Below are positions 3,874 through 49,110 of a DNA stretch of 64,000 nucleotides, one piece after another; positions within the stretch are counted from its first letter, which is position 1; each line of letters opens with the position of its first letter. Origin of the DNA: Escherichia phage kaaroe; sequence record MN850574.1; one strand, written 5' to 3'. The notes under the pieces were generated by a model. It saw nothing but the letters and a program-made list of their open reading frames with translations. It made no database searches and had not been told where the DNA came from. Position numbers and translations under genes: made by a program.

Positions 3874-3908
3874 TTGACAATAAGAAATGGGAGTAGTAAA
3901 ATACTCCC
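3874..3908 (+). promoter_or_regulatory. early promoter with GGGAGTA/TACTCCC hairpin (PeSL-like)
   Basis: TTGACA 3874-3879, 17-nt spacer, TAAAAT 3897-3902; arms GGGAGTAG 3889-3896 and TACTCCC 3902-3908. Confidence 0.6.
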
Positions 3909-3933
3909 ATCTAATCAAGAAGGAGAATCAACA

Positions 3934-4206
3934 ATGCGTAAGATGTTTAAATCCGGTGTTGCCTATGTTTTTAAATCTGAGCAAGCACATAAAGACTTCT
4001 TAGATGATGAATACGAGGGGGTGAAAGATACCTACGAAGTCATCAAGAATGGGTTTACTGTTCTTAAAGTGTCACCTGTTGGTTATGTAAGTGAAATCTC
4101 GGTTGATGGGAAAACATACACCGCTAAAGACTTTGATCCGCGTTGGGAATTTATGCTGCTTCCGTGTGAGCGCATTCTGTTCCGTGCTGTTCAATTAGTG
4201 AAATGA
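3934..4206 (+). CDS. hypothetical protein, paralog family A member 1
   Basis: AAGGAG RBS; GF(T/K)VLKV..G.V..I.VDG..YT..DF module shared with next two genes. Confidence 0.5.
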   Translation: MRKMFKSGVAYVFKSEQAHKDFLDDEYEGVKDTYEVIKNGFTVLKVSPVGYVSEISVDGKTYTAKDFDPRWEFMLLPCERILFRAVQLVK

Positions 4207-4220
4207 TAGAGGATTATATT

Positions 4221-4787
4221 ATGGTACAGAAAACGTATAAATTGTATCCGGCTAAGTCTTCAAATGATGCTGTTTTTGAACGAGGTCGTTATTACACTTT
4301 CCGTAATGCTGAGTCCGCAGAGGAATTTGTTAAACGCTACCCACAACATAACAAGTTCCTGTATGGTGTGCTTCACAGGGGCTTTAAAGTTCTTACGGTT
4401 AATGTTATGGGTAAAGTGTATTTGGTAGAAACTCATGATTATGAGGGTGCATCAATCATGATTGATGCAAGCGAGCGCAAATACTTTAAACGCATCACTA
4501 AAAAGCAGTTTGAAGAAATGAAACCAGTTAAGAAAGAAGAATCTCTGGAAGATCTGATTAACTTGTTTGGTAAAGTTCGCTCTATCTCCTTTGCGATTGA
4601 AGATGACATTACCGACAATAAAATCTTTATCAAGAACGCGGAAGACCTGAAAGAGTTCCTTATTGAAAATAGATCTCGGCTGGAAACCTTTCTTGAAAGT
4701 GAAATTATTCGACATGATACCTACGCTAAATTCAGCGCCGATAAAGTAGCTGAACTGAAAGAGATCCAAAAGTCATTTAACGCTTGA
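4221..4787 (+). CDS. hypothetical protein, paralog family A member 2
   Basis: Shares GFKVLTV and ERKYFKRITKKQFEEM modules with 4844..6022. Confidence 0.55.
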   Translation: MVQKTYKLYPAKSSNDAVFERGRYYTFRNAESAEEFVKRYPQHNKFLYGVLHRGFKVLTVNVMGKVYLVETHDYEGASIMIDASERKYFKRITKKQFEEMKPVKKEESLEDLINLFGKVRSISFAIEDDITDNKIFIKNAEDLKEFLIENRSRLETFLESEIIRHDTYAKFSADKVAELKEIQKSFNA

Positions 4788-4818
4788 CATGATGAAACGG
4801 GAGTAGTAAGATACTCCC
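4784..4818 (+). promoter_or_regulatory. early promoter with GGGAGTA/TACTCCC hairpin (PeSL-like)
   Basis: TTGACA 4784-4789, 17-nt spacer, TAAGAT 4807-4812, arms GGGAGTAG/TACTCCC. Confidence 0.6.
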
Positions 4819-4843
4819 ATCTAAACAACGAGAGGATTATATT

Positions 4844-6022
4844 ATGGCTAAATTCTTTGAAGGTCATTACTATGCATTCCGTGAAGGCGGTAAAGATGAG
4901 TTTCTAGACTTTTCTCGCTATTCAATTATTCTGACCGATGCTTCGCGCCGTGGTCATATTCGGGTTGCTGAAATCGTAGAAAAGGGCTTTAAAGTATTAG
5001 AAAAAGATGACCACGGTCATGTTATTACTATTGAAGCTGGAGATGTAGTTTATTCCGCTGAGGATATCGTTTATTATTGGTCTACTATGATTATGCACAA
5101 TGAGCGCAAATACTTTAAACGTATCTCAAAAGAGGCATACGAAGCGATGAACAAGAAAGAGGATGCAATGCCGACTTACTTTGAAAAAGGTAAATGTTAT
5201 TCGTTTACCCCAGAAGGTTTGCAAGAATTTAAGCGATTCTGGGGAGAGCATGACCCAGAGCACAAAGAAGCCATGAAACTTGTTGATTTTGTCGAATATG
5301 GCTTTTTAGTTGAAGAAGAATTGCACGGATCAGCTACCATGATCACCGCGAAAGGTGAAACCGTCAAGGCGGACCGTTTTTGTGATCAATGGAATTGCTT
5401 GTTTGACGGTAGCGAATTTGAATACTTCGCGGAAATCACGAAACAACAATTTCATTCTATGCAAGCGGATGGTCAGAGATTTAAAGTAGGTGAACGCTAC
5501 AAACCAAATCAGCATAATTTGCCATATTGGTTTACCGCTGAAACTGTATCAAGTCATGTTGTTGAAATTGTTCAAAAGCTGGGACAAGGATTTAAGGTAA
5601 CTAAAGTAGATGATTATGGAAGTGTTGACGCGGTTGAAATTGATGGTGTAGAATATACACCGAAATCTTTCGGTCTTTGCTGGTATCACTTGATCAGCAA
5701 TGATGAACGTTATAACTTTGTTGAACTGCCATCTGAACCGGAAGAAGCACTAGAAGATCATGATCATCTGTCTGAACTGGTTAAGCTGTTTGGTGATCTG
5801 CCGGATGGTGTAGGCGTGGCGGTAATGGGTGAAGGTGCTGTTATCCGAAACCTGAAAGACTTTAAAAAGTTCTTGATTGACATGCTGCCTAAACTTGATG
5901 ATAATCTAGATACAGATATTCAGAATCGCAAAGAAATTGTTAAAGAGACTGAAAAAGAGATCGAAGAGATTCGAGCAATTCGCCAGAAGGTGAAAGCAGT
6001 AAAGAAAAAAGTTAGTGCTTGA
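4844..6022 (+). CDS. hypothetical protein, paralog family A member 3 (internally repeated)
   Basis: Contains GFKVLEK, GFKVTKV, ERKYFKRISKEAYEAM and EFEYFAEITKQQFHSM repeats of the family A module. Confidence 0.6.
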   Translation: MAKFFEGHYYAFREGGKDEFLDFSRYSIILTDASRRGHIRVAEIVEKGFKVLEKDDHGHVITIEAGDVVYSAEDIVYYWSTMIMHNERKYFKRISKEAYEAMNKKEDAMPTYFEKGKCYSFTPEGLQEFKRFWGEHDPEHKEAMKLVDFVEYGFLVEEELHGSATMITAKGETVKADRFCDQWNCLFDGSEFEYFAEITKQQFHSMQADGQRFKVGERYKPNQHNLPYWFTAETVSSHVVEIVQKLGQGFKVTKVDDYGSVDAVEIDGVEYTPKSFGLCWYHLISNDERYNFVELPSEPEEALEDHDHLSELVKLFGDLPDGVGVAVMGEGAVIRNLKDFKKFLIDMLPKLDDNLDTDIQNRKEIVKETEKEIEEIRAIRQKVKAVKKKVSA

Positions 6023-6053
6023 CATGCGAAGGGAGTATGCTATAATACTCCCA
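6019..6053 (+). promoter_or_regulatory. early promoter with GGGAGTA/TACTCCC hairpin (PeSL-like)
   Basis: TTGACA 6019-6024, TATAAT 6041-6046, arms GGGAGTA 6031-6037 and TACTCCC 6047-6053. Confidence 0.6.
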
Positions 6054-6076
6054 CTTAACAACGAGAGGATTATATT

Positions 6077-6571
6077 ATGTGGGTACAAGATGTTTGGTAT
6101 ACTGTAACTAAAGAAAACCTTGACGCATTCAGCGACCAATCTTGCGCTAATAGCTCAATTGCTGGTATACTTACTGATGTGTTTGGTGGTGTAGATAAAA
6201 TTCGTTTTAAAGTTGTTGTTAGTTCGCTGGGTCAGGTGAAAGATCTTTACACCGAAGATAAAGACCTTGATCTTGAACTTCGTCTTCGTATTGATAATGC
6301 AAGTCTAGGTTATTGGTTTGAAGATAACGAATATGAATACTTCACGCCAGCAATTAAAGTTTTTGCGACTAAACTGGAAGCTGTACTGAATCTCCGACCA
6401 ATTAATGTTGACGGATACATTATCAAAAATATTCAGGATTGGGAGTTGTATCTAGATCAGGTTATCCGAAATAGTAAGCAGGAAGCCGCTAATAAGAAGC
6501 GACAAGAGATTAAACAGCTTAAAGCTGAACTAGAAGCTAAAGAAAAAGAATTAGCAGAACTGGTAAAATAA
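6077..6571 (+). CDS. hypothetical protein with C-terminal coiled coil
   Basis: GAGAGGATTATATTATG start context; C-terminal heptad-like KQLKAELEAKEKELAELVK. Confidence 0.5.
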   Translation: MWVQDVWYTVTKENLDAFSDQSCANSSIAGILTDVFGGVDKIRFKVVVSSLGQVKDLYTEDKDLDLELRLRIDNASLGYWFEDNEYEYFTPAIKVFATKLEAVLNLRPINVDGYIIKNIQDWELYLDQVIRNSKQEAANKKRQEIKQLKAELEAKEKELAELVK

Positions 6572-9667: not shown

Positions 9668-9696
9668 TTGACGGGGATCGCGAGATCCCCTATACT
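9668..9696 (+). promoter_or_regulatory. early promoter with GGGGATC/GATCCCC hairpin
   Basis: TTGACG 9668-9673, 17-nt spacer, TATACT 9691-9696; palindrome GGGGATCgcgaGATCCCC 9673-9690. Confidence 0.5.
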
Positions 9697-9738
9697 ATAT
9701 TCATCAAGACGAGATACAACTTTACAGGAGAATCAAAT

Positions 9739-9891
9739 ATGTGGACTTTACTGATTTGGGAAACTGAAAACGCACAAGTAGAAATCCGTGAATACGAATA
9801 CCTAAGCCCAGCTTATCTATTAGCATCTCGCGGTGGTTACTATAAAGCGCAGATTGTAAACGAGTTCGGGGTAATTGAATATGAGTTCTGA
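9739..9891 (+). CDS. hypothetical small protein
   Basis: AGGAGAATCAAAT leader then ATG 9739; 50 aa. Confidence 0.35.
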   Translation: MWTLLIWETENAQVEIREYEYLSPAYLLASRGGYYKAQIVNEFGVIEYEF

Positions 9892-21191: not shown

Positions 21192-21221
21192 TTAATTGAT
21201 TAACATGATAAAGGTGATTTG

Positions 21222-21908
21222 ATGAAACTGACTAAAGAAACCATTGCTACCCTGAAAAACTTTTCCGCTATTAACCCAGGTATCATCCTGAAAAAAGGAA
21301 ACGTCCTGATCACCAAAAACATGACAAACGTTGTATATGGTGAAGCGACTCTGAATCAAGAACTGGAACACGAAATTGGGATCTATGATCTTAACTCTTT
21401 CTTGGGTATTCTGAATCTGGTAGGCGATGAAGCAGATATTACGGTTGACGACCGCACTGGTAACATTCGTGTGTCTAATGATCGTCTGAAAATTAATTAC
21501 CCTGGTGCTAGTGCTGCTGCTATCGTATCACCGAAAGGCCGAGTTACTCCACCTGCAAGCGATGTAGATTACGAACTGAGCAACGACGATCTGAAACAGC
21601 TTATGAAAATGAGCAATCAGCTTAAAGTGGATCGCCTTGAATTTCTTCCGATTGATGGTCGTCTGATGATCAAAGGTTGGGAAGAGATTGACAAAAATAA
21701 TCCTAATGAGATGTTTTGTCTTGATATGGGCGAATATACCGGAACCGCAGACTTCCATTTCTTTATTCGTAAAGATAACATGAAACTGGTTGCTACTGAC
21801 TTCGGCGATTACAAACTGAGCTTCACTCGCCGTAAGGCTGTATGGCTGGCAAGTGAAACCGTATCTTATATGATCGCGTGTGACCTTGACTCCAGCTACA
21901 CCGACTAA
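21222..21908 (+). CDS. 45: sliding clamp gp45
   Basis: MKLTKETIATLKNFSAINPGIILK colinear with recalled T4 gp45 N-terminus; 228 aa. Confidence 0.9.
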   Translation: MKLTKETIATLKNFSAINPGIILKKGNVLITKNMTNVVYGEATLNQELEHEIGIYDLNSFLGILNLVGDEADITVDDRTGNIRVSNDRLKINYPGASAAAIVSPKGRVTPPASDVDYELSNDDLKQLMKMSNQLKVDRLEFLPIDGRLMIKGWEEIDKNNPNEMFCLDMGEYTGTADFHFFIRKDNMKLVATDFGDYKLSFTRRKAVWLASETVSYMIACDLDSSYTD

Positions 21909-21920
21909 TATAATGTTTGT

Positions 21921-21941
21921 GGGGAGTATAAAATACTCCCC
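21921..21941 (+). other. GGGGAGTA/TACTCCCC hairpin with TATAAAAT in loop region
   Basis: 8-bp stem with 5-nt loop between genes 45 and 44; same arm sequence as the PeSL-like promoters. Confidence 0.45.
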
Positions 21942-21974: not shown

Positions 21975-22949
21975 ATGCTGAGTGTTAATGAAAATGAGTT
22001 TCAGTGGGAACAGAAATACCGTCCGAAATCAATTTCTGAATGTATTCTGCCGGAAGCAGATAAAAAGATCTTCGCGCAGATTGTTAAGCAAGGCCGAATC
22101 CCTTCTATGATCCTGCATAGCCCATCGCCGGGTACTGGTAAAACAACCGTTGCTAAGGCGCTTTGCGAAGATGTGGGTGTTGATTATCTGTTTGTTAACG
22201 GCGCAGATTGTAAGATTGATTTTATCCGCGATGAGATTACACGCTTTGCGCAGAGTGTATCACTCGATGAAGAAAAAAGAGAAAAAGGCAAAGTTGTTAT
22301 TATCGATGAGTATGACCGAGCGGGGTTGGCTGACGCTCAAAGACACTTGCGTAGTTTCTCTGAGGCATACTCAAACAATGTGACATTCATTATCACAGCA
22401 AACGATCTAGAAGGTATTATCCCAGCGTTACGATCTCGATTTGACCCCATAACGTTTGGATCTCCGACTAAAGATGATCAGCTTCGCATGATGAAAGAAA
22501 TGATCGTCCGGTGTAAAGCAATTCTTGATAAAGAAGGTGTGCCAGTAGAAGAAATGCGCGTATTAGCGGAACTGGTTAAACAGAACTTCCCAGACTTCCG
22601 ACGCGTAATGAAACTTTTGGACCGCTACGCTAAACATGGTAAAATTGATGCTGGCGTATTGAGCATGGTTATCGAAAGTAGCAATACCGAAGTAACCGAT
22701 GTGGTGGAAGCACTTAAAACTAAACAGTTTGCTAATGTGCGTAAACTTGCGCCGCGATATACCAATACATACGCTCAATTTGTCAAGAAACTTTATAATG
22801 AGTTGTATACTCAAGTTAAGCCAGCTTCTATTATTCGTCTCACTGAGATTATCGGTGAAAATAATCAGATGTTTGCACACGCGGCTGATAAAGAGATTCA
22901 CATTGTCTTTTTGTTAATGCAATTAATGGTTGAATTGGAGTTCGTATAA
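21975..22949 (+). CDS. 44: clamp loader large subunit gp44
   Basis: EQKYRP..HSPSPGTGKTTVAKAL Walker A, IDEYDR, SRC-like region; colinear with recalled T4 gp44. Confidence 0.9.
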   Translation: MLSVNENEFQWEQKYRPKSISECILPEADKKIFAQIVKQGRIPSMILHSPSPGTGKTTVAKALCEDVGVDYLFVNGADCKIDFIRDEITRFAQSVSLDEEKREKGKVVIIDEYDRAGLADAQRHLRSFSEAYSNNVTFIITANDLEGIIPALRSRFDPITFGSPTKDDQLRMMKEMIVRCKAILDKEGVPVEEMRVLAELVKQNFPDFRRVMKLLDRYAKHGKIDAGVLSMVIESSNTEVTDVVEALKTKQFANVRKLAPRYTNTYAQFVKKLYNELYTQVKPASIIRLTEIIGENNQMFAHAADKEIHIVFLLMQLMVELEFV

Positions 22950-39240: not shown

Positions 39241-39244
39241 CACT

Positions 39245-39280
39245 TGACATACAAGGGAGATTCTCTATAATGGGAGTCTC
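39245..39280 (+). promoter_or_regulatory. early promoter within GGGAGA/TCTCCC hairpin followed by T-run
   Basis: TTGACA 39245-39250, TATAAT 39266-39271; arms GGGAGA 39255-39260 and TCTCCC 39277-39282 then TTTTCTTTT. Confidence 0.5.
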
Positions 39281-39305
39281 CCTTTTCTTTTATGAGGATT
39301 TAACG

Positions 39306-44695: not shown

Positions 44696-46042
44696 ATGAA
44701 TAAATCAGTTACTTACCGCAGCCTTGAAAGCATTGTACATAATGAAGCTAAGGAATATGCGATCTATTCTGCCGAGGAACGCGGGATTCCTCAATTAGTG
44801 GATGGGCTTAAACCAGTGCAACGCTTTGTTATGGAGTGCGCACTTCAAAAGAGTAAAGGTGACCGTAAGAAATTCCGTAAGATGGCAGATATTGGATCTG
44901 GTGTTGCTGAGTTGGGGTATCACCACGGCGAAACTAATGCCGTAGAAGCCGGATCACTCATGGCGAATACATGGAGCAATAATACTCCACTGCTTGACGG
45001 TCAAGGTAACTTCGGATCGCGTTTAGTCCAGAAAGCAGGTGCGGCACGTTATATCTTTGCTCGCGTGCATGAAAACTTCTTTAAAATCTATAAAGATATG
45101 AATTGCGCACCTAAGCACGAAGATCTGGAACACATCCCGCCAGCGTTCTACTTGCCAGTTGTGCCAATGGTATTGGCTAACGGTATTAGTGGTATTGCTA
45201 CAGGGTATAAAACTGACATTTTACCGCATTCACTGGAAAGCCTTATTGAATGCACAGAGCTAGCACTTGCCGGAAAACTGGATAAAGAACCTAGTGTTCA
45301 ATTCCCGAAATTCACGGGTAAAGTTATCCCGCGAGATGATCGCGATGGTGTGATTCTTGAGGGTACATATGAACTAAACGGCAAGACTAAACTGACAATA
45401 TCAGAAGTTCCTTATAAGTTCGACCGTGAAGAATATGTAGCGGTACTGGATGCACTGGAAGAAAAAGATCTGATTGTATCGTATAATGACCGTTGCTCTA
45501 AGGACGGATTCAGATTTGAAGTAACACTGAAACGCGATTATTTCAAAAGCGAAGATGAATCCGCTCGACATGAGCAAATCATGAAGGATTTTAAACTAAC
45601 GCAGTTAGTAGCCCAGAATATCGTAGTAGTTAACGAACGTGGTTTAGTAGAAGTATTCGAGAAAGCGAGCGATCTGATCCGTCGATTCGTCGAAATCCGA
45701 TTAGGGTATGTCGATAAACGCATTGAATTGATGCAAGCGGAAACGCTGGAAGCATACAATTATGCAATGGCTAAAGCCGAATTTATCGATCGCGTAATTA
45801 AGGGCGAAATCGAGCTACAGGGCAAGAAAAAGGCCGAGGTAATGCAATCCATCAATGGACATGAAAAACTGCGTCCATACGCCGATAAGCTAGTTTCTAT
45901 GCCATTGTATAGCGTTACTCAAGAAGAGTATGATCGACTGGTCAAAGATGCCGATAAACATCATAGTGAATATGAGTATTGGACAAAGACGACCGCAATG
46001 AAGGAATATAAGAAAGATCTTAAAGAACTTAAGAAGGGTTGA
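44696..46042 (+). CDS. 52: topoisomerase II medium (GyrA-like) subunit gp52
   Basis: DGLKPVQRFV motif and breakage-reunion region; position after the rIIB region. Confidence 0.9.
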   Translation: MNKSVTYRSLESIVHNEAKEYAIYSAEERGIPQLVDGLKPVQRFVMECALQKSKGDRKKFRKMADIGSGVAELGYHHGETNAVEAGSLMANTWSNNTPLLDGQGNFGSRLVQKAGAARYIFARVHENFFKIYKDMNCAPKHEDLEHIPPAFYLPVVPMVLANGISGIATGYKTDILPHSLESLIECTELALAGKLDKEPSVQFPKFTGKVIPRDDRDGVILEGTYELNGKTKLTISEVPYKFDREEYVAVLDALEEKDLIVSYNDRCSKDGFRFEVTLKRDYFKSEDESARHEQIMKDFKLTQLVAQNIVVVNERGLVEVFEKASDLIRRFVEIRLGYVDKRIELMQAETLEAYNYAMAKAEFIDRVIKGEIELQGKKKAEVMQSINGHEKLRPYADKLVSMPLYSVTQEEYDRLVKDADKHHSEYEYWTKTTAMKEYKKDLKELKKG

Positions 46043-46641: not shown

Positions 46642-46651
46642 CTGATTATTA

Positions 46652-46680
46652 AGCCGATCCTTGTGGTCGGCTTTTTTATT
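46652..46680 (+). terminator. intrinsic terminator
   Basis: AGCCGATCcttgtGGTCGGCT followed by TTTTTTATTTT. Confidence 0.7.
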
Positions 46681-46690
46681 TTAAAAGTTG

Positions 46691-46719
46691 TTGACTTCCA
46701 TAATCCATCATTGCATAAT
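46691..46719 (+). promoter_or_regulatory. sigma70-type early promoter with conserved leader
   Basis: TTGACT 46691-46696, 17-nt spacer, CATAAT 46714-46719; leader ATAATACACACATACCAAAC..AAGGAGAATCAA. Confidence 0.55.
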
Positions 46720-46750
46720 ACACACATACCAAACAAAAGGAGAATCAAAG

Positions 46751-47023
46751 ATGAACAACGAAAACAGCAAAGTGTTGGCAATTGCAGATAAAGTAGGTTA
46801 CTGGAAATGCTGGGATGATATGGAGAAATTAGGCGGTCGCTATCTCGATAACTTAGAGTTGCATTATTGCCAAGCGCGTAATGCAGAAGTTGCGGGAGTA
46901 GCAATCGAAGATATTCCGTCTAAAGTCTTCGGATTCTCTAAAGATGATACTCTAGAATATGTTTTCAAGGCTGTTATGGATCAAGCATGGGAAGACGCAG
47001 AGACACGCGCTCTTGACTGGTGA
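46751..47023 (+). CDS. hypothetical protein
   Basis: AAGGAGAATCAAAG then ATG 46751. Confidence 0.45.
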   Translation: MNNENSKVLAIADKVGYWKCWDDMEKLGGRYLDNLELHYCQARNAEVAGVAIEDIPSKVFGFSKDDTLEYVFKAVMDQAWEDAETRALDW

Positions 47024-47027
47024 TAAT

Positions 47028-47198
47028 ATGAACTGGTATAAAATTTGGAAAAATCAGGTGGAGGCTTATCTAGGGTATAAGCCAACCGACGAAGAATTAC
47101 TTGAAGCAATGTACGAAGACGGCTTAAATCCGAAAGTAGCCGCGCAAGAATACGCGGAATGGGTGAAGGTCGAAGATAACCTAAAGGGGAAACTATGA
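47028..47198 (+). CDS. hypothetical small protein
   Basis: ATG 47028; 56 aa. Confidence 0.35.
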   Translation: MNWYKIWKNQVEAYLGYKPTDEELLEAMYEDGLNPKVAAQEYAEWVKVEDNLKGKL

Positions 47199-47395
47199 AG
47201 AAAATGATTGCGATTGCTTTGCTGGCTAGTGCATGTACGGTAAATGCTAATACCGCAGCGATGGTCGCGGCTGTAACTGCTGCAAATGCGTCTGTTATGG
47301 CATCGCAAGAGGCAGCACGCCAGCAAGCACAACAAGAAGCCCAGCGAAAAGCACATGAGGCGACGAAAAATTTCACGAAAATAACAAAAAACTAG
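47195..47395 (+). CDS. small secreted or lipoprotein-like protein
   Basis: N-terminal signal-like MKKMIAIALLASAC with possible lipobox Cys; Ala/Gln-rich mature part. Confidence 0.4.
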   Translation: MKKMIAIALLASACTVNANTAAMVAAVTAANASVMASQEAARQQAQQEAQRKAHEATKNFTKITKN

Positions 47396-47430
47396 TTGAC
47401 GCCAAAGGTCATCGGTAGTATTATACTCCC
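47396..47430 (+). promoter_or_regulatory. sigma70-type early promoter with degenerate hairpin
   Basis: TTGACG 47396-47401, 17-nt spacer, TATTAT 47419-47424; GGTAGTA..TACTCCC arms. Confidence 0.5.
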
Positions 47431-47458
47431 ATACCGAAACGAACTGGAGGAAATAAAA

Positions 47459-47701
47459 ATGGTTAAAGTTAATGTTATCGAAGTTGCACTGTACGACGCT
47501 GGGATCTTCCTGAATGAAAAAGAAGCTGCCGTCCTCGACGAACTGAAAACTGTTTTTGTTCCTGTAGTAGAAGACGTAGAAGCAATCAAAATCGCTTCTC
47601 GTAAACTGTCCCGCGAAGCATTCGACATGATTGATCCGGTTTTCAAAGTTATGCACGAATGCGCGGTTATGATGACCGAAGAAGAAGCGAAAAATTTCTA
47701 A
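47459..47701 (+). CDS. hypothetical protein
   Basis: GGAGG RBS, ATG 47459. Confidence 0.45.
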   Translation: MVKVNVIEVALYDAGIFLNEKEAAVLDELKTVFVPVVEDVEAIKIASRKLSREAFDMIDPVFKVMHECAVMMTEEEAKNF

Positions 47702-47708
47702 AAACTAG

Positions 47709-47743
47709 TTGACGTAAAGATAAGGGAGTAGTAACATACTCCC
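47709..47743 (+). promoter_or_regulatory. early promoter with GGGAGTA/TACTCCC hairpin (PeSL-like)
   Basis: TTGACG 47709-47714, 17-nt spacer, TAACAT 47732-47737; arms GGGAGTAG 47724-47731 and TACTCCC 47737-47743. Confidence 0.55.
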
Positions 47744-47766
47744 ATACCAAACGAAAGGAGAATCAC

Positions 47767-47976
47767 ATGAAATCTATCGAGCAAGTAGTAACAGAGTTTA
47801 TGAGCTACGAAGGAAACCGCATCTTTGGACGTTCTCAAGTTCGCGAGATCGTAGAAGAAGTTGCTGGAGAGTTTGCGGAATCTGGTCACATTATCACGCA
47901 AGAACGTAAAGAAGAAGCAGTAAACCAGATCATGGCTATACAGAAAATGCGTATTAATGCACGAGCGGGGGCTTAA
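47767..47976 (+). CDS. hypothetical protein
   Basis: AAGGAGAATCACATG start context. Confidence 0.45.
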   Translation: MKSIEQVVTEFMSYEGNRIFGRSQVREIVEEVAGEFAESGHIITQERKEEAVNQIMAIQKMRINARAGA

Positions 47977-47977
47977 A

Positions 47978-48277
47978 ATGAATTTTACCGATAAAGTTTT
48001 TGAAATTAGTCGCACTACTTCAATTAAAAATCTTAGGGCGGCTGCATTTATGGTTGATAAAGGGTTTAATATGGCATCGTCTGACGGTGTACCGTACTTT
48101 GCACCAACTTTCGTTGGCTGGATGACTGATCGTAAACGTGATTACACTAAAGCATATCCGCATATGGTACTTAGTAAAATTATCACTAAAGTGTATCCAC
48201 ATATGGTACTTAATGACGTTATCACGGACCACGATCACTTTACAAACTTTATTGTTTCCGGTGAATGGCGAAAATAA
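47978..48277 (+). CDS. hypothetical protein with internal 13-aa tandem repeat
   Basis: ATG 47978; YPHMVLSKIITKV / YPHMVLNDVITDH from a 39-bp direct DNA repeat. Confidence 0.45.
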   Translation: MNFTDKVFEISRTTSIKNLRAAAFMVDKGFNMASSDGVPYFAPTFVGWMTDRKRDYTKAYPHMVLSKIITKVYPHMVLNDVITDHDHFTNFIVSGEWRK

Positions 48278-48288
48278 TTTAAAACTAG

Positions 48289-48323
48289 TTGACACCGGAT
48301 TAAGGGAGTAGTAACATACTCCC
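48289..48323 (+). promoter_or_regulatory. early promoter with GGGAGTA/TACTCCC hairpin (PeSL-like)
   Basis: TTGACA 48289-48294, 17-nt spacer, TAACAT 48312-48317; arms identical to the 47709 copy. Confidence 0.55.
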
Positions 48324-48351
48324 ATCAAGACAAAACACTGAGGAATATATT

Positions 48352-49110
48352 ATGAAAAACATTATCGCTGCTATCGTTCTTTCTGCTACTGCTTTCGGTG
48401 CTAACGCTGCGTCCTTTGATTGCGCTAAAGCTACTACCAAATCAGAGAAGTTTATTTGTGCTAATGAGTCTATCTCCGCACTGGACTCTAAACTTCATGA
48501 GGTGTATGTTAAGGCTGTTAAGATTGATCCGTCTCTGAAACAAGAGCAACGAAACTGGAATAAAACTGTTCGTGATACAATGATCAATATAGGGCAGATT
48601 CAGCCACTGGAGGCTGTATATAACGCTCAAATCCAAAACTTGATGAATGTATTACCTAAAGAAGAAACCGCGTCAGAAAGCGATTCAGAGACTTCTGCGA
48701 AGGTTGAAGAAGAACAACCGAAACAGGAAGCAAAAGTGGTAGAAGAACCGAAGGTCGAAACTTTTACCTATCAATGTACCGTTCGTTATGAGTGGAGTAT
48801 GAAAGATGGAATTTCCACAAAAATTAAAGAGGCTCCACTGTATGCAAAATATGGAAACCAGCCAGGGGATCTTAAAGTAACCATTAAAAATGGGAAGATG
48901 GTTGATTTTGTATACACTGATGAATACAACGTACACAAAGCAAACGTACAAGAAACCGTTATGACTAAAGGCGGGTTTTATAAGAATGTTGGCAAGAAAG
49001 ATCTATATGAATACTCCGTTTTCGAACCAAACGACGGAACTATTCGATTTGAAAAACGTCATCCTACATTCGGTGGAGCAATTGATGTAGATCAATACGT
49101 TTGCAAGTAA
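48352..49110 (+). CDS. secreted protein with LprI/DUF1311-like N-terminal domain
   Basis: Signal peptide MKNIIAAIVLSATAFGANA; CAKATT..E.FIC..ISALDSKL..VY pattern typical of DUF1311; acidic linker then C-terminal domain with second Cys pair. Confidence 0.5.
   Translation: MKNIIAAIVLSATAFGANAASFDCAKATTKSEKFICANESISALDSKLHEVYVKAVKIDPSLKQEQRNWNKTVRDTMINIGQIQPLEAVYNAQIQNLMNVLPKEETASESDSETSAKVEEEQPKQEAKVVEEPKVETFTYQCTVRYEWSMKDGISTKIKEAPLYAKYGNQPGDLKVTIKNGKMVDFVYTDEYNVHKANVQETVMTKGGFYKNVGKKDLYEYSVFEPNDGTIRFEKRHPTFGGAIDVDQYVCK

Follow-up and report, generated by a model that had tools for sequence, protein, structure and literature searches.

The window analysed here is a stretch of 64,000 nucleotides of Escherichia phage kaaroe (MN850574.1), given as one strand 5' to 3' and numbered from its first base. 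The part under study, 47396-48323, lies downstream of the topoisomerase gene 52, in the hyperplastic stretch that corresponds to ORF262-266 of phage RB49, and all genes in the region are on the + strand. Reading 5' to 3', gene 52 (end at 46042) is followed by two small ORFs, a terminator, a promoter, three further small ORFs and then the first of three intergenic cassettes, which were read from the sequence with starts at 47396, 47709 and 48289. We refer to these as cassettes 1, 2 and 3, and to the genes around them as A, B, C and E (Table 1).

The three cassettes have in common the pattern TTGAC(A/G)-17 bp-TAnnAT-ACTCCC-A. Each starts at the stop of the preceding gene or at most about 12 nt past it, and ends in a Shine-Dalgarno sequence (SD) and an ATG, the SD lying 8-11 nt 5' of the ATGs at 47459, 47767 and 48352. 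The proteins encoded behind them have no known function. Gene A is missing from RB49, phi1, JSE, ECD7, UPWr_E1, G37-3 and JK32, and the N-terminus of the gene E product looks signal-peptide-like on our reading of the sequence. A neighbouring cassette of another subclass, upstream of the three small ORFs, carries the leader ATACCAAACAAAAGGAGAATCA, which it shares in near-identical form with cassette 2; in one Makalu record, the hairpin of a neighbouring cassette is annotated as a terminator.

Table 1 Features of the cassette region and of the related first cluster in the window. PeSL, promoter-early stem-loop.
Feature	Position	Strand	Details
First cluster, same hairpin type	3874-6076	+	cassette starts 3874, 4784, 6019
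First-cluster hairpins	3889-3908, 4799-4818, 6031-6052	+	
Neighbouring cassette, other subclass	46651-46750	+	canonical intrinsic terminator hairpin 46651-46673 (9-bp stem and T-run), then promoter 17 nt downstream
Neighbouring cassette, promoter	46691-46719	+	-35 TTGACT 46691-46696; 17; -10 CATAAT 46714-46719
Cassette 1, probable PeSL before gene A	47368-47458	+	A/T-rich tract holds TAG stop 47393-47395 of upstream 66-aa gene
Cassette 1, promoter	47396-47424	+	-35 TTGACG 47396-47401; 17-bp spacer; -10 TATTAT 47419-47424; 10/12 consensus matches
Cassette 1, hairpin	47414-47430	+	GGTAGTA-TTA-TACTCCC; degenerate, shifted
Cassette 1, predicted +1 and SD	47431; 47446-47450	+	A; GGAGG
Gene A	47459-47701	+	80 aa; ORFan; no Pfam or PHROG match
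Cassette 2, probable PeSL before gene B	47699-47766	+	gene A stop TAA 47699-47701 inside A-rich tract
Cassette 2, promoter	47709-47737	+	-35 TTGACG 47709-47714; -10 TAACAT 47732-47737 (loop and first base of right arm)
Cassette 2, hairpin	47724-47743	+	GGGAGTA 47724-47730; loop GTAACA; TACTCCC 47737-47743
Cassette 2, predicted +1 and SD	47744; 47755-47760	+	A; AAGGAG
Gene B	47767-47976	+	69 aa; phrog_14966
Gene C	47978-48277	+	99 aa; phrog_19692; in only some relatives (phi1 ORF263.1-type slot)
Cassette 3, probable PeSL before gene E	48275-48351	+	gene C stop TAA 48275-48277 inside A-rich tract
Cassette 3, promoter	48289-48317	+	-35 TTGACA 48289-48294; -10 TAACAT 48312-48317; 10/12 consensus matches
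Cassette 3, hairpin	48304-48323	+	GGGAGTA/GTAACA/TACTCCC
Cassette 3, predicted +1 and SD	48324; 48340-48344	+	A; GAGGA
Gene E	48352-49110	+	252 aa; N-terminal LprI-like domain (PF07007); RB49 ORF262

Promoter features of the cassettes

The hexamers and spacings of the three cassettes are TTGACG/17/TATTAT, TTGACG/17/TAACAT and TTGACA/17/TAACAT, which agree with the sigma-70 consensus at 9-10 of 12 positions, and the 25 nt upstream of the promoters have an A+T content of 72-76% (76% at cassette 1). The homologous sites of all three are annotated as promoters, with -35 and -10 signals, in the RefSeq record of phage GEC-3S. The 5' ends of RB49 early transcripts were reportedly mapped by Desplats and co-workers in 2002. 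Early promoters of RB49 prefer a TTGAC-like -35 and carry C at -3 to -1, a consensus that agrees with 5'-end mapping (Nolan et al. 2006). Given this consensus, the predicted +1 of each cassette is the A after CCC, so that the whole hairpin would lie upstream of the cassette's own transcript and be absent from it. The initial annotation had spoken of a hairpin promoter; the promoter stands, as one of ordinary sigma-70 type, but the hairpin part was overstated, since the hairpin lies wholly 5' of the predicted start. An N4-type hairpin promoter was also considered, but the cassettes have a full sigma-70 -35/-10 pair, and we did not retain this reading.

Similarity between the copies

The stretches 47709-47743 and 48289-48323, each of which starts with the -35 hexamer and ends with the hairpin, had been described as identical over about 35 bp. 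As a sum this holds, but the identity is not contiguous: the matching blocks are 13 nt (AAAACTAGTTGAC) and 25 nt (TAAGGGAGTAGTAACATACTCCCAT) long, with seven differing bases between them. When 47700-47750 was aligned with 48280-48330, 39 of 51 positions were identical. The degenerate copy reported at 47396 is indeed there and retains TTGACG-17-TATTAT-ACTCCCAT; its promoter pattern is kept, and its hairpin is weak and shifted, the left arm being displaced by 3 nt and carrying a mismatch.

Across the window, the 20-mer GGGAGTAGTAACATACTCCC with up to three mismatches is found at four sites (3889, 4799, 47724 and 48304) and in none of 100 shuffles, and GGGAGTA is present in 16 copies, where 3.5 ± 1.8 are expected (maximum 7). 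The first cluster, which the earlier description had placed some 40 kb away, is about 42 kb distant. From 15 nt before the -35 through the ATG, cassette-to-cassette identity is 59-78%, pairs between the two clusters included, compared with 49 ± 3% (maximum 60%) for random 76-mers. The 90 nt on each side of the cassettes show 47-57% identity, which is background. The similarity thus covers only about 75 nt, A/T-rich tract through start codon, and goes no further than that codon on one side and the upstream stop on the other.

Copies of this kind could have arisen by tandem duplication of whole genes together with their promoters, the coding parts having diverged afterwards, and the genes behind the 3874 and 4784 cassettes of the first cluster do share a domain (BLASTP E ~1e-6, with shared PHROG hits). 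The second cluster tells against it: BLASTP among the proteins behind the three cassettes (A, B and E) gave E > 1 for every pair, their PHROG families are different or none, nucleotide identity is at background right from the ATG and the upstream stop, and the units assort independently among genomes, as described below. We therefore regard tandem duplication as hardly credible. The claim that the copies precede unrelated genes, for which paralogy would have been the counter-evidence, came through this check for the second cluster and for comparisons between the clusters; inside the first cluster, where there is weak paralogy, it does not strictly hold.

The three genes of the first cluster, within 3934-6571, are distant paralogues, and the 90-aa protein matches repeats within a 392-aa goF-like protein (phrog_8944); the 164-aa protein has a weak PHROG hit, phrog_3710, in common with the 392-aa protein. 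The gene at 4844-6022 matches a goF-like PHROG. On these protein matches, duplication of genes may have played a part in this cluster (3.9-6.6 kb).

Gene content and junctions among relatives

Fifty-eight genomes matched the 3-kb stretch around the cassettes, with coverage of 46%-100% and identity of 92-99% over the matched parts. Nearly all of these records (56 of 58) are named as Escherichia, Enterobacteria or Shigella phages or as Krischvirus, and the 17 relatives that were fetched are all classified as Krischvirus, i.e. RB49-like T4-type coliphages. The 3-kb region shows 99.1% identity with Escherichia phage FL37 and, in the aligned parts, 96-97% with RB49 and JSE and about 95.5% with phi1.

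Gene content was compared in 18 genomes, namely the window and the 17 relatives. Five units vary between the conserved ORF267 and gene E: G, A, C, D and F, the last together with ORF265 and a small membrane-like ORF. Unit D has its own cassette of GGGGATCGGCGATCCCC type and is missing from the kaaroe window. For the pairs G/A, C/D and A/C, all four combinations of presence and absence are found, so that single ancestral insertions or deletions are insufficient and repeated exchange is required. The ends of BLASTN alignments cluster at the cassettes (46717-46755, 47688-47736, 48273-48276 and 48300). Boundaries also occur away from cassettes, at 47185-47190, at 47345-47357 and in the internal replacement of gene E at 48753-49092. 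This last segment, covering the C-terminal half of gene E and the adjoining ORF261, exists in a divergent version in GEC-3S, phi1, JSE, MIZ6, PHB13 and E26, and is a mosaic boundary without a cassette.

By three-way comparisons, four junctions were mapped. In ECD7, the gene-F cassette passes into gene B within the common leader ATACCAAAC(A/G)AAAGGAGAATCA, this crossover between the 46651-46750 and 47709 cassettes having deleted everything in between. In G37-3, the switch lies around the hairpin. UPWr_E1 has its junction at the -10: its spacer is that of the A cassette, while its -10 loop and leader are those of the B cassette. In kaaroe itself, the 3' end of gene C is joined to the E cassette within AAAACTAG/TTGACA, that is, in the A-rich tract and -35 of cassette 3.

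These junctions bear on two other explanations. The first is convergence only, in which each promoter was selected separately towards a strong sigma-70 consensus, with neither shared descent nor exchange. Selection for strength would be expected to give the -35 and -10 hexamers and the A/T-rich tract. The identity, however, also covers parts that sigma-70 does not require, namely the left arm GGGAGTA in the spacer, ACTCCC as discriminator, and leaders like the one shared in ECD7, and the chimeric cassettes of UPWr_E1, G37-3 and ECD7 show actual exchange. We consider convergence alone to be highly improbable.

The second is an integron-like process, in which a dedicated recombinase would cut and join the hairpin as if it were an attC site. 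The cassette organisation is similar, and Arbiol et al. (PMC2839356), who described such elements in RB49-type phages, make the comparison themselves and report mini-circles. Against this, the four junctions fall in four places (A-rich tract/-35, hairpin, -10 and leader/SD) with no fixed crossover point, and beyond the T4-type recombination machinery no integrase or recombinase is reported in RB49/phi1 (PMC2839356). An integron-like mechanism thus has very little probability in our judgement; four junctions at four different points of the cassette fit short-homology recombination rather than a site-specific enzyme.

The initial annotation had also proposed that a promoter module spreads independently of coding sequence. 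The comparison supports this, with promoter-plus-gene units gained and lost independently and junctions inside cassettes, although the idea had already been published. An exact scan of IMG/VR for TTGAC-N10-GGGAGTA-N6-TACTCCC returned only three contigs (150 kb, 165 kb and a 4-kb fragment), and on this evidence the module appears to be confined to the RB49-type phage group.

Identification of the cassettes as PeSLs

Each cassette is very probably a promoter-early stem-loop (PeSL) such as RB49-type T4-like coliphages carry: an expression joint, complete in itself and about 75-100 bp long, that stands between small accessory genes. The element is already known, having been described in 2010 in RB49-type phages, and kaaroe is a further Krischvirus genome. 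Arbiol et al. (PMC2839356) counted about 50 PeSLs per genome in RB49 and phi1 and defined them by a sigma-70-consensus promoter, an AT-rich upstream tract with an upstream stop codon, a stem-loop, and the SD and ATG of an ORFan. The stem-loop is found most often between -35 and -10, or overlapping the -10, and the elements are concentrated in hyperplastic regions, 5' of ORFans (PMC2839356). In their proposal, genes are deleted, inserted and swapped when PeSLs recombine with one another, and mini-circles arise in the process (PMC2839356); the subject was extended by Comeau et al. 2014 (PMC4122927).

In kaaroe we find the promoter hexamers, the AT-rich tract with its stop codon, the SD and start of an ORFan, a hyperplastic T4-type region, and variable flanked genes with chimeric cassettes. 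The stem-loop is present in cassettes 2 and 3; cassette 1 has no convincing hairpin, which we count against this identification. Promoter activity was assayed for PeSL193/192 and 206/205, and termination for PeSL211/210 (PMC2839356). In the RB49 sequence, PeSL193/192 reads TTGAAA-17-TAAGAT with GGGAGT...ACTCCC around the -10 and is of the same hairpin type as in kaaroe, and PeSL206/205 and PeSL211/210 have hairpins of GGGGAT...ATCCCC type, placed between their -35 and -10.

Fold, conservation and possible roles of the hairpin

The RNA hairpins at cassettes 2 and 3 fold with -11.9 kcal/mol each (z -3.95 and -4.61 against shuffles), and none of 200 shuffles folds as well as 47724-47743. First-cluster hairpins range from -11.9 to -13.8 kcal/mol, and the one of the 47396 copy, at -5.9 kcal/mol (z -1.3), is no better than shuffles. 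In the good copies the stem has 7 bp, GGGAGTA-N6-TACTCCC, and encloses the -10 box. Among 23 distinct copies, a covariation test found little variation in the stem: four of the seven pairs are invariant, with one compensatory change and three unpaired cells, values that 31 of 500 shuffles reach, so that the stem gains little from covariation. The compensatory change belongs to the cassette 3 orthologue of Shigella phage JK32 (L017:2974-3015), which reads TGGAGTA...TACTCCA, a double change that keeps the outermost pair. We dropped the idea that the loop centre is hypervariable, since bases 3-4 of the -10 at orthologous sites are about as diverse as nearby synonymous sites.

An intrinsic (Rho-independent) terminator on the + strand was rejected, because no U-run stands behind the G+C-rich hairpin: the tails of the cassette hairpins are AUACCAAACG and AUCAAGACAA (ATACCAAACG, ATCAAGACAA). 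A + strand terminator scan left the cassette hairpins unflagged, whereas it flagged the terminator at 46651-46673. The reverse strand of 47724-47743, opposite to all local genes, is weakly terminator-like.

Three other hairpins in the window were recorded. At 9668-9740, a cassette before a 50-aa ORF has GGGGATC-GCGA-GATCCCC between -35 and -10, the type that was assayed as a terminator in the 2010 PeSL paper. At 39244-39292, a TTGACA-17-TATAAT promoter has a 12-bp stem (-20.1 kcal/mol) with the -10 as its loop, followed by TTTTCTTTT; going by its sequence, this is a promoter and a canonical-looking terminator superimposed. At 21921-21941, past the end of a 229-aa ORF (21219-21908) and ahead of the next gene, whose ATG is at 21976, GGGGAGTA-TAAAA-TACTCCCC is followed by GTTTT. 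Its arms are those of the promoter hairpins, no -35/-10 hexamers stand at promoter spacing, and it looks like a terminator that re-uses the promoter-hairpin arms.

The palindrome GGGAGTA-N6-TACTCCC might instead serve above all as the DNA target of a dimeric phage protein, either an early-promoter repressor, in phages reported to lack MotA, or a recombination helper, which would be compatible with a PeSL. Arbiol et al. speculated on a DNA-binding protein that targets the stem-loop (PMC2839356). The arms are almost invariant among paralogous copies that differ in spacers and leaders, the same arms recur in the non-promoter hairpin at 21921-21941, and searches by others found neither a motA ortholog nor a middle-promoter consensus in RB49. 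Loop lengths of 3, 5, 6, 8 and 10 nt (47414, 21921, 47724, 6031 and RB49 PeSL193/192, respectively) are nevertheless unusual for a dimeric operator, other cassettes have entirely different stems elsewhere, which fits a structural requirement, and no candidate protein has been identified. We hold this reading to be unlikely. Only a small chance is likewise given to the arms being the recognition site of a phage protein that would switch off this subset of early promoters, or would nick or extrude the hairpin and so create recombination hotspots; if true, the protein-site reading would explain the arms in the non-promoter hairpin.

Returning to the PeSL identification, different cassettes bear different stems at different positions, a variety that fits a structural rather than a sequence requirement. 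The displaced left arm of the 47396 copy and the compensatory change in JK32 likewise speak for a structural role. That the arms are near-invariant among paralogous copies could be due to recombination that homogenised them, to common descent or to a binder that recognises the sequence. Of the whole account, the part played by the hairpin, be it in attenuation, in recombination or as a target of a protein, is the least certain. For the GGGAGTA type an attenuator role is extrapolated, as the published termination assay used the GGGGAT...ATCCCC hairpin of PeSL211/210. For the hairpin type overlapping the -10, a role as terminator is putative, and residual novelty is limited to the function of the GGGAGTA hairpin there.

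Proposed working of the cassettes

As PeSLs, the cassettes might work as follows. The stop codon of the upstream gene lies in the A/T-rich tract, which may serve as an UP element, and is followed by a near-consensus sigma-70 -35 (TTGACA/G), a 17-bp spacer and a -10 (TAnnAT) that makes up most of the hairpin loop. The right arm ACTCCC occupies -6 to -1, with transcription predicted to start at the A after CCC and to run through a leader of about 20 nt into the SD and ATG. Host RNA polymerase would fire the cassette promoters immediately after infection. The hairpin would then be present only in read-through RNA from the upstream unit, where it may attenuate, terminate or 3'-cap the upstream transcript and insulate each unit. 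With many cassettes per genome, short patches of identity would be offered to the phage homologous-recombination machinery, and promoter-plus-gene units could be deleted, inserted or swapped with expression intact; the comparison among relatives supports both of these last steps.

Few concrete mechanisms have been proposed by which large lytic phages could shuffle accessory genes and keep them expressed, and PeSLs are among them. The kaaroe window holds no new type of element. What it does provide, through 18 genomes compared at a single locus, is independent backing for the published PeSL model: five units assort independently, and crossovers fall at several positions of the cassette.

Comparison with other known systems

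The early promoters of T4 are likewise dependent on host sigma-70, A/T-rich upstream and placed before many small nonessential genes. Their -35 is GTTTAC-like, whereas RB49 prefers TTGAC (Nolan et al. 2006). The elements that Arbiol et al. regard as PeSL analogues at the T4 IP loci have weaker, AT-rich stem-loops (PMC2839356). Lambdoid morons (Hendrix et al. 2000, as discussed in PMC2839356) are also single accessory genes, each equipped with a promoter and a terminator. Their regulatory flanks, however, are not conserved repeats and are not thought to mediate movement (PMC2839356), whereas in PeSLs the repeat itself is the joint.

Integron cassettes too are small gene units bounded by hairpin-forming repeats, and circular intermediates are proposed for both. 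Integron cassettes rely on one common promoter, whereas the PeSL repeat carries a promoter for each unit. PeSL crossover points, moreover, vary, and no integrase is reported in RB49/phi1 (PMC2839356).

The closest comparison is with the PeSLs of RB49 and phi1 themselves. Of the ORF262-265 locus only ORFan263.1 is named in the original description (PMC2839356). The kaaroe cassettes share with those PeSLs the genus, the hyperplastic region after gene 52, the architecture and the behaviour as boundaries of insertions and deletions, and nothing essential differs.
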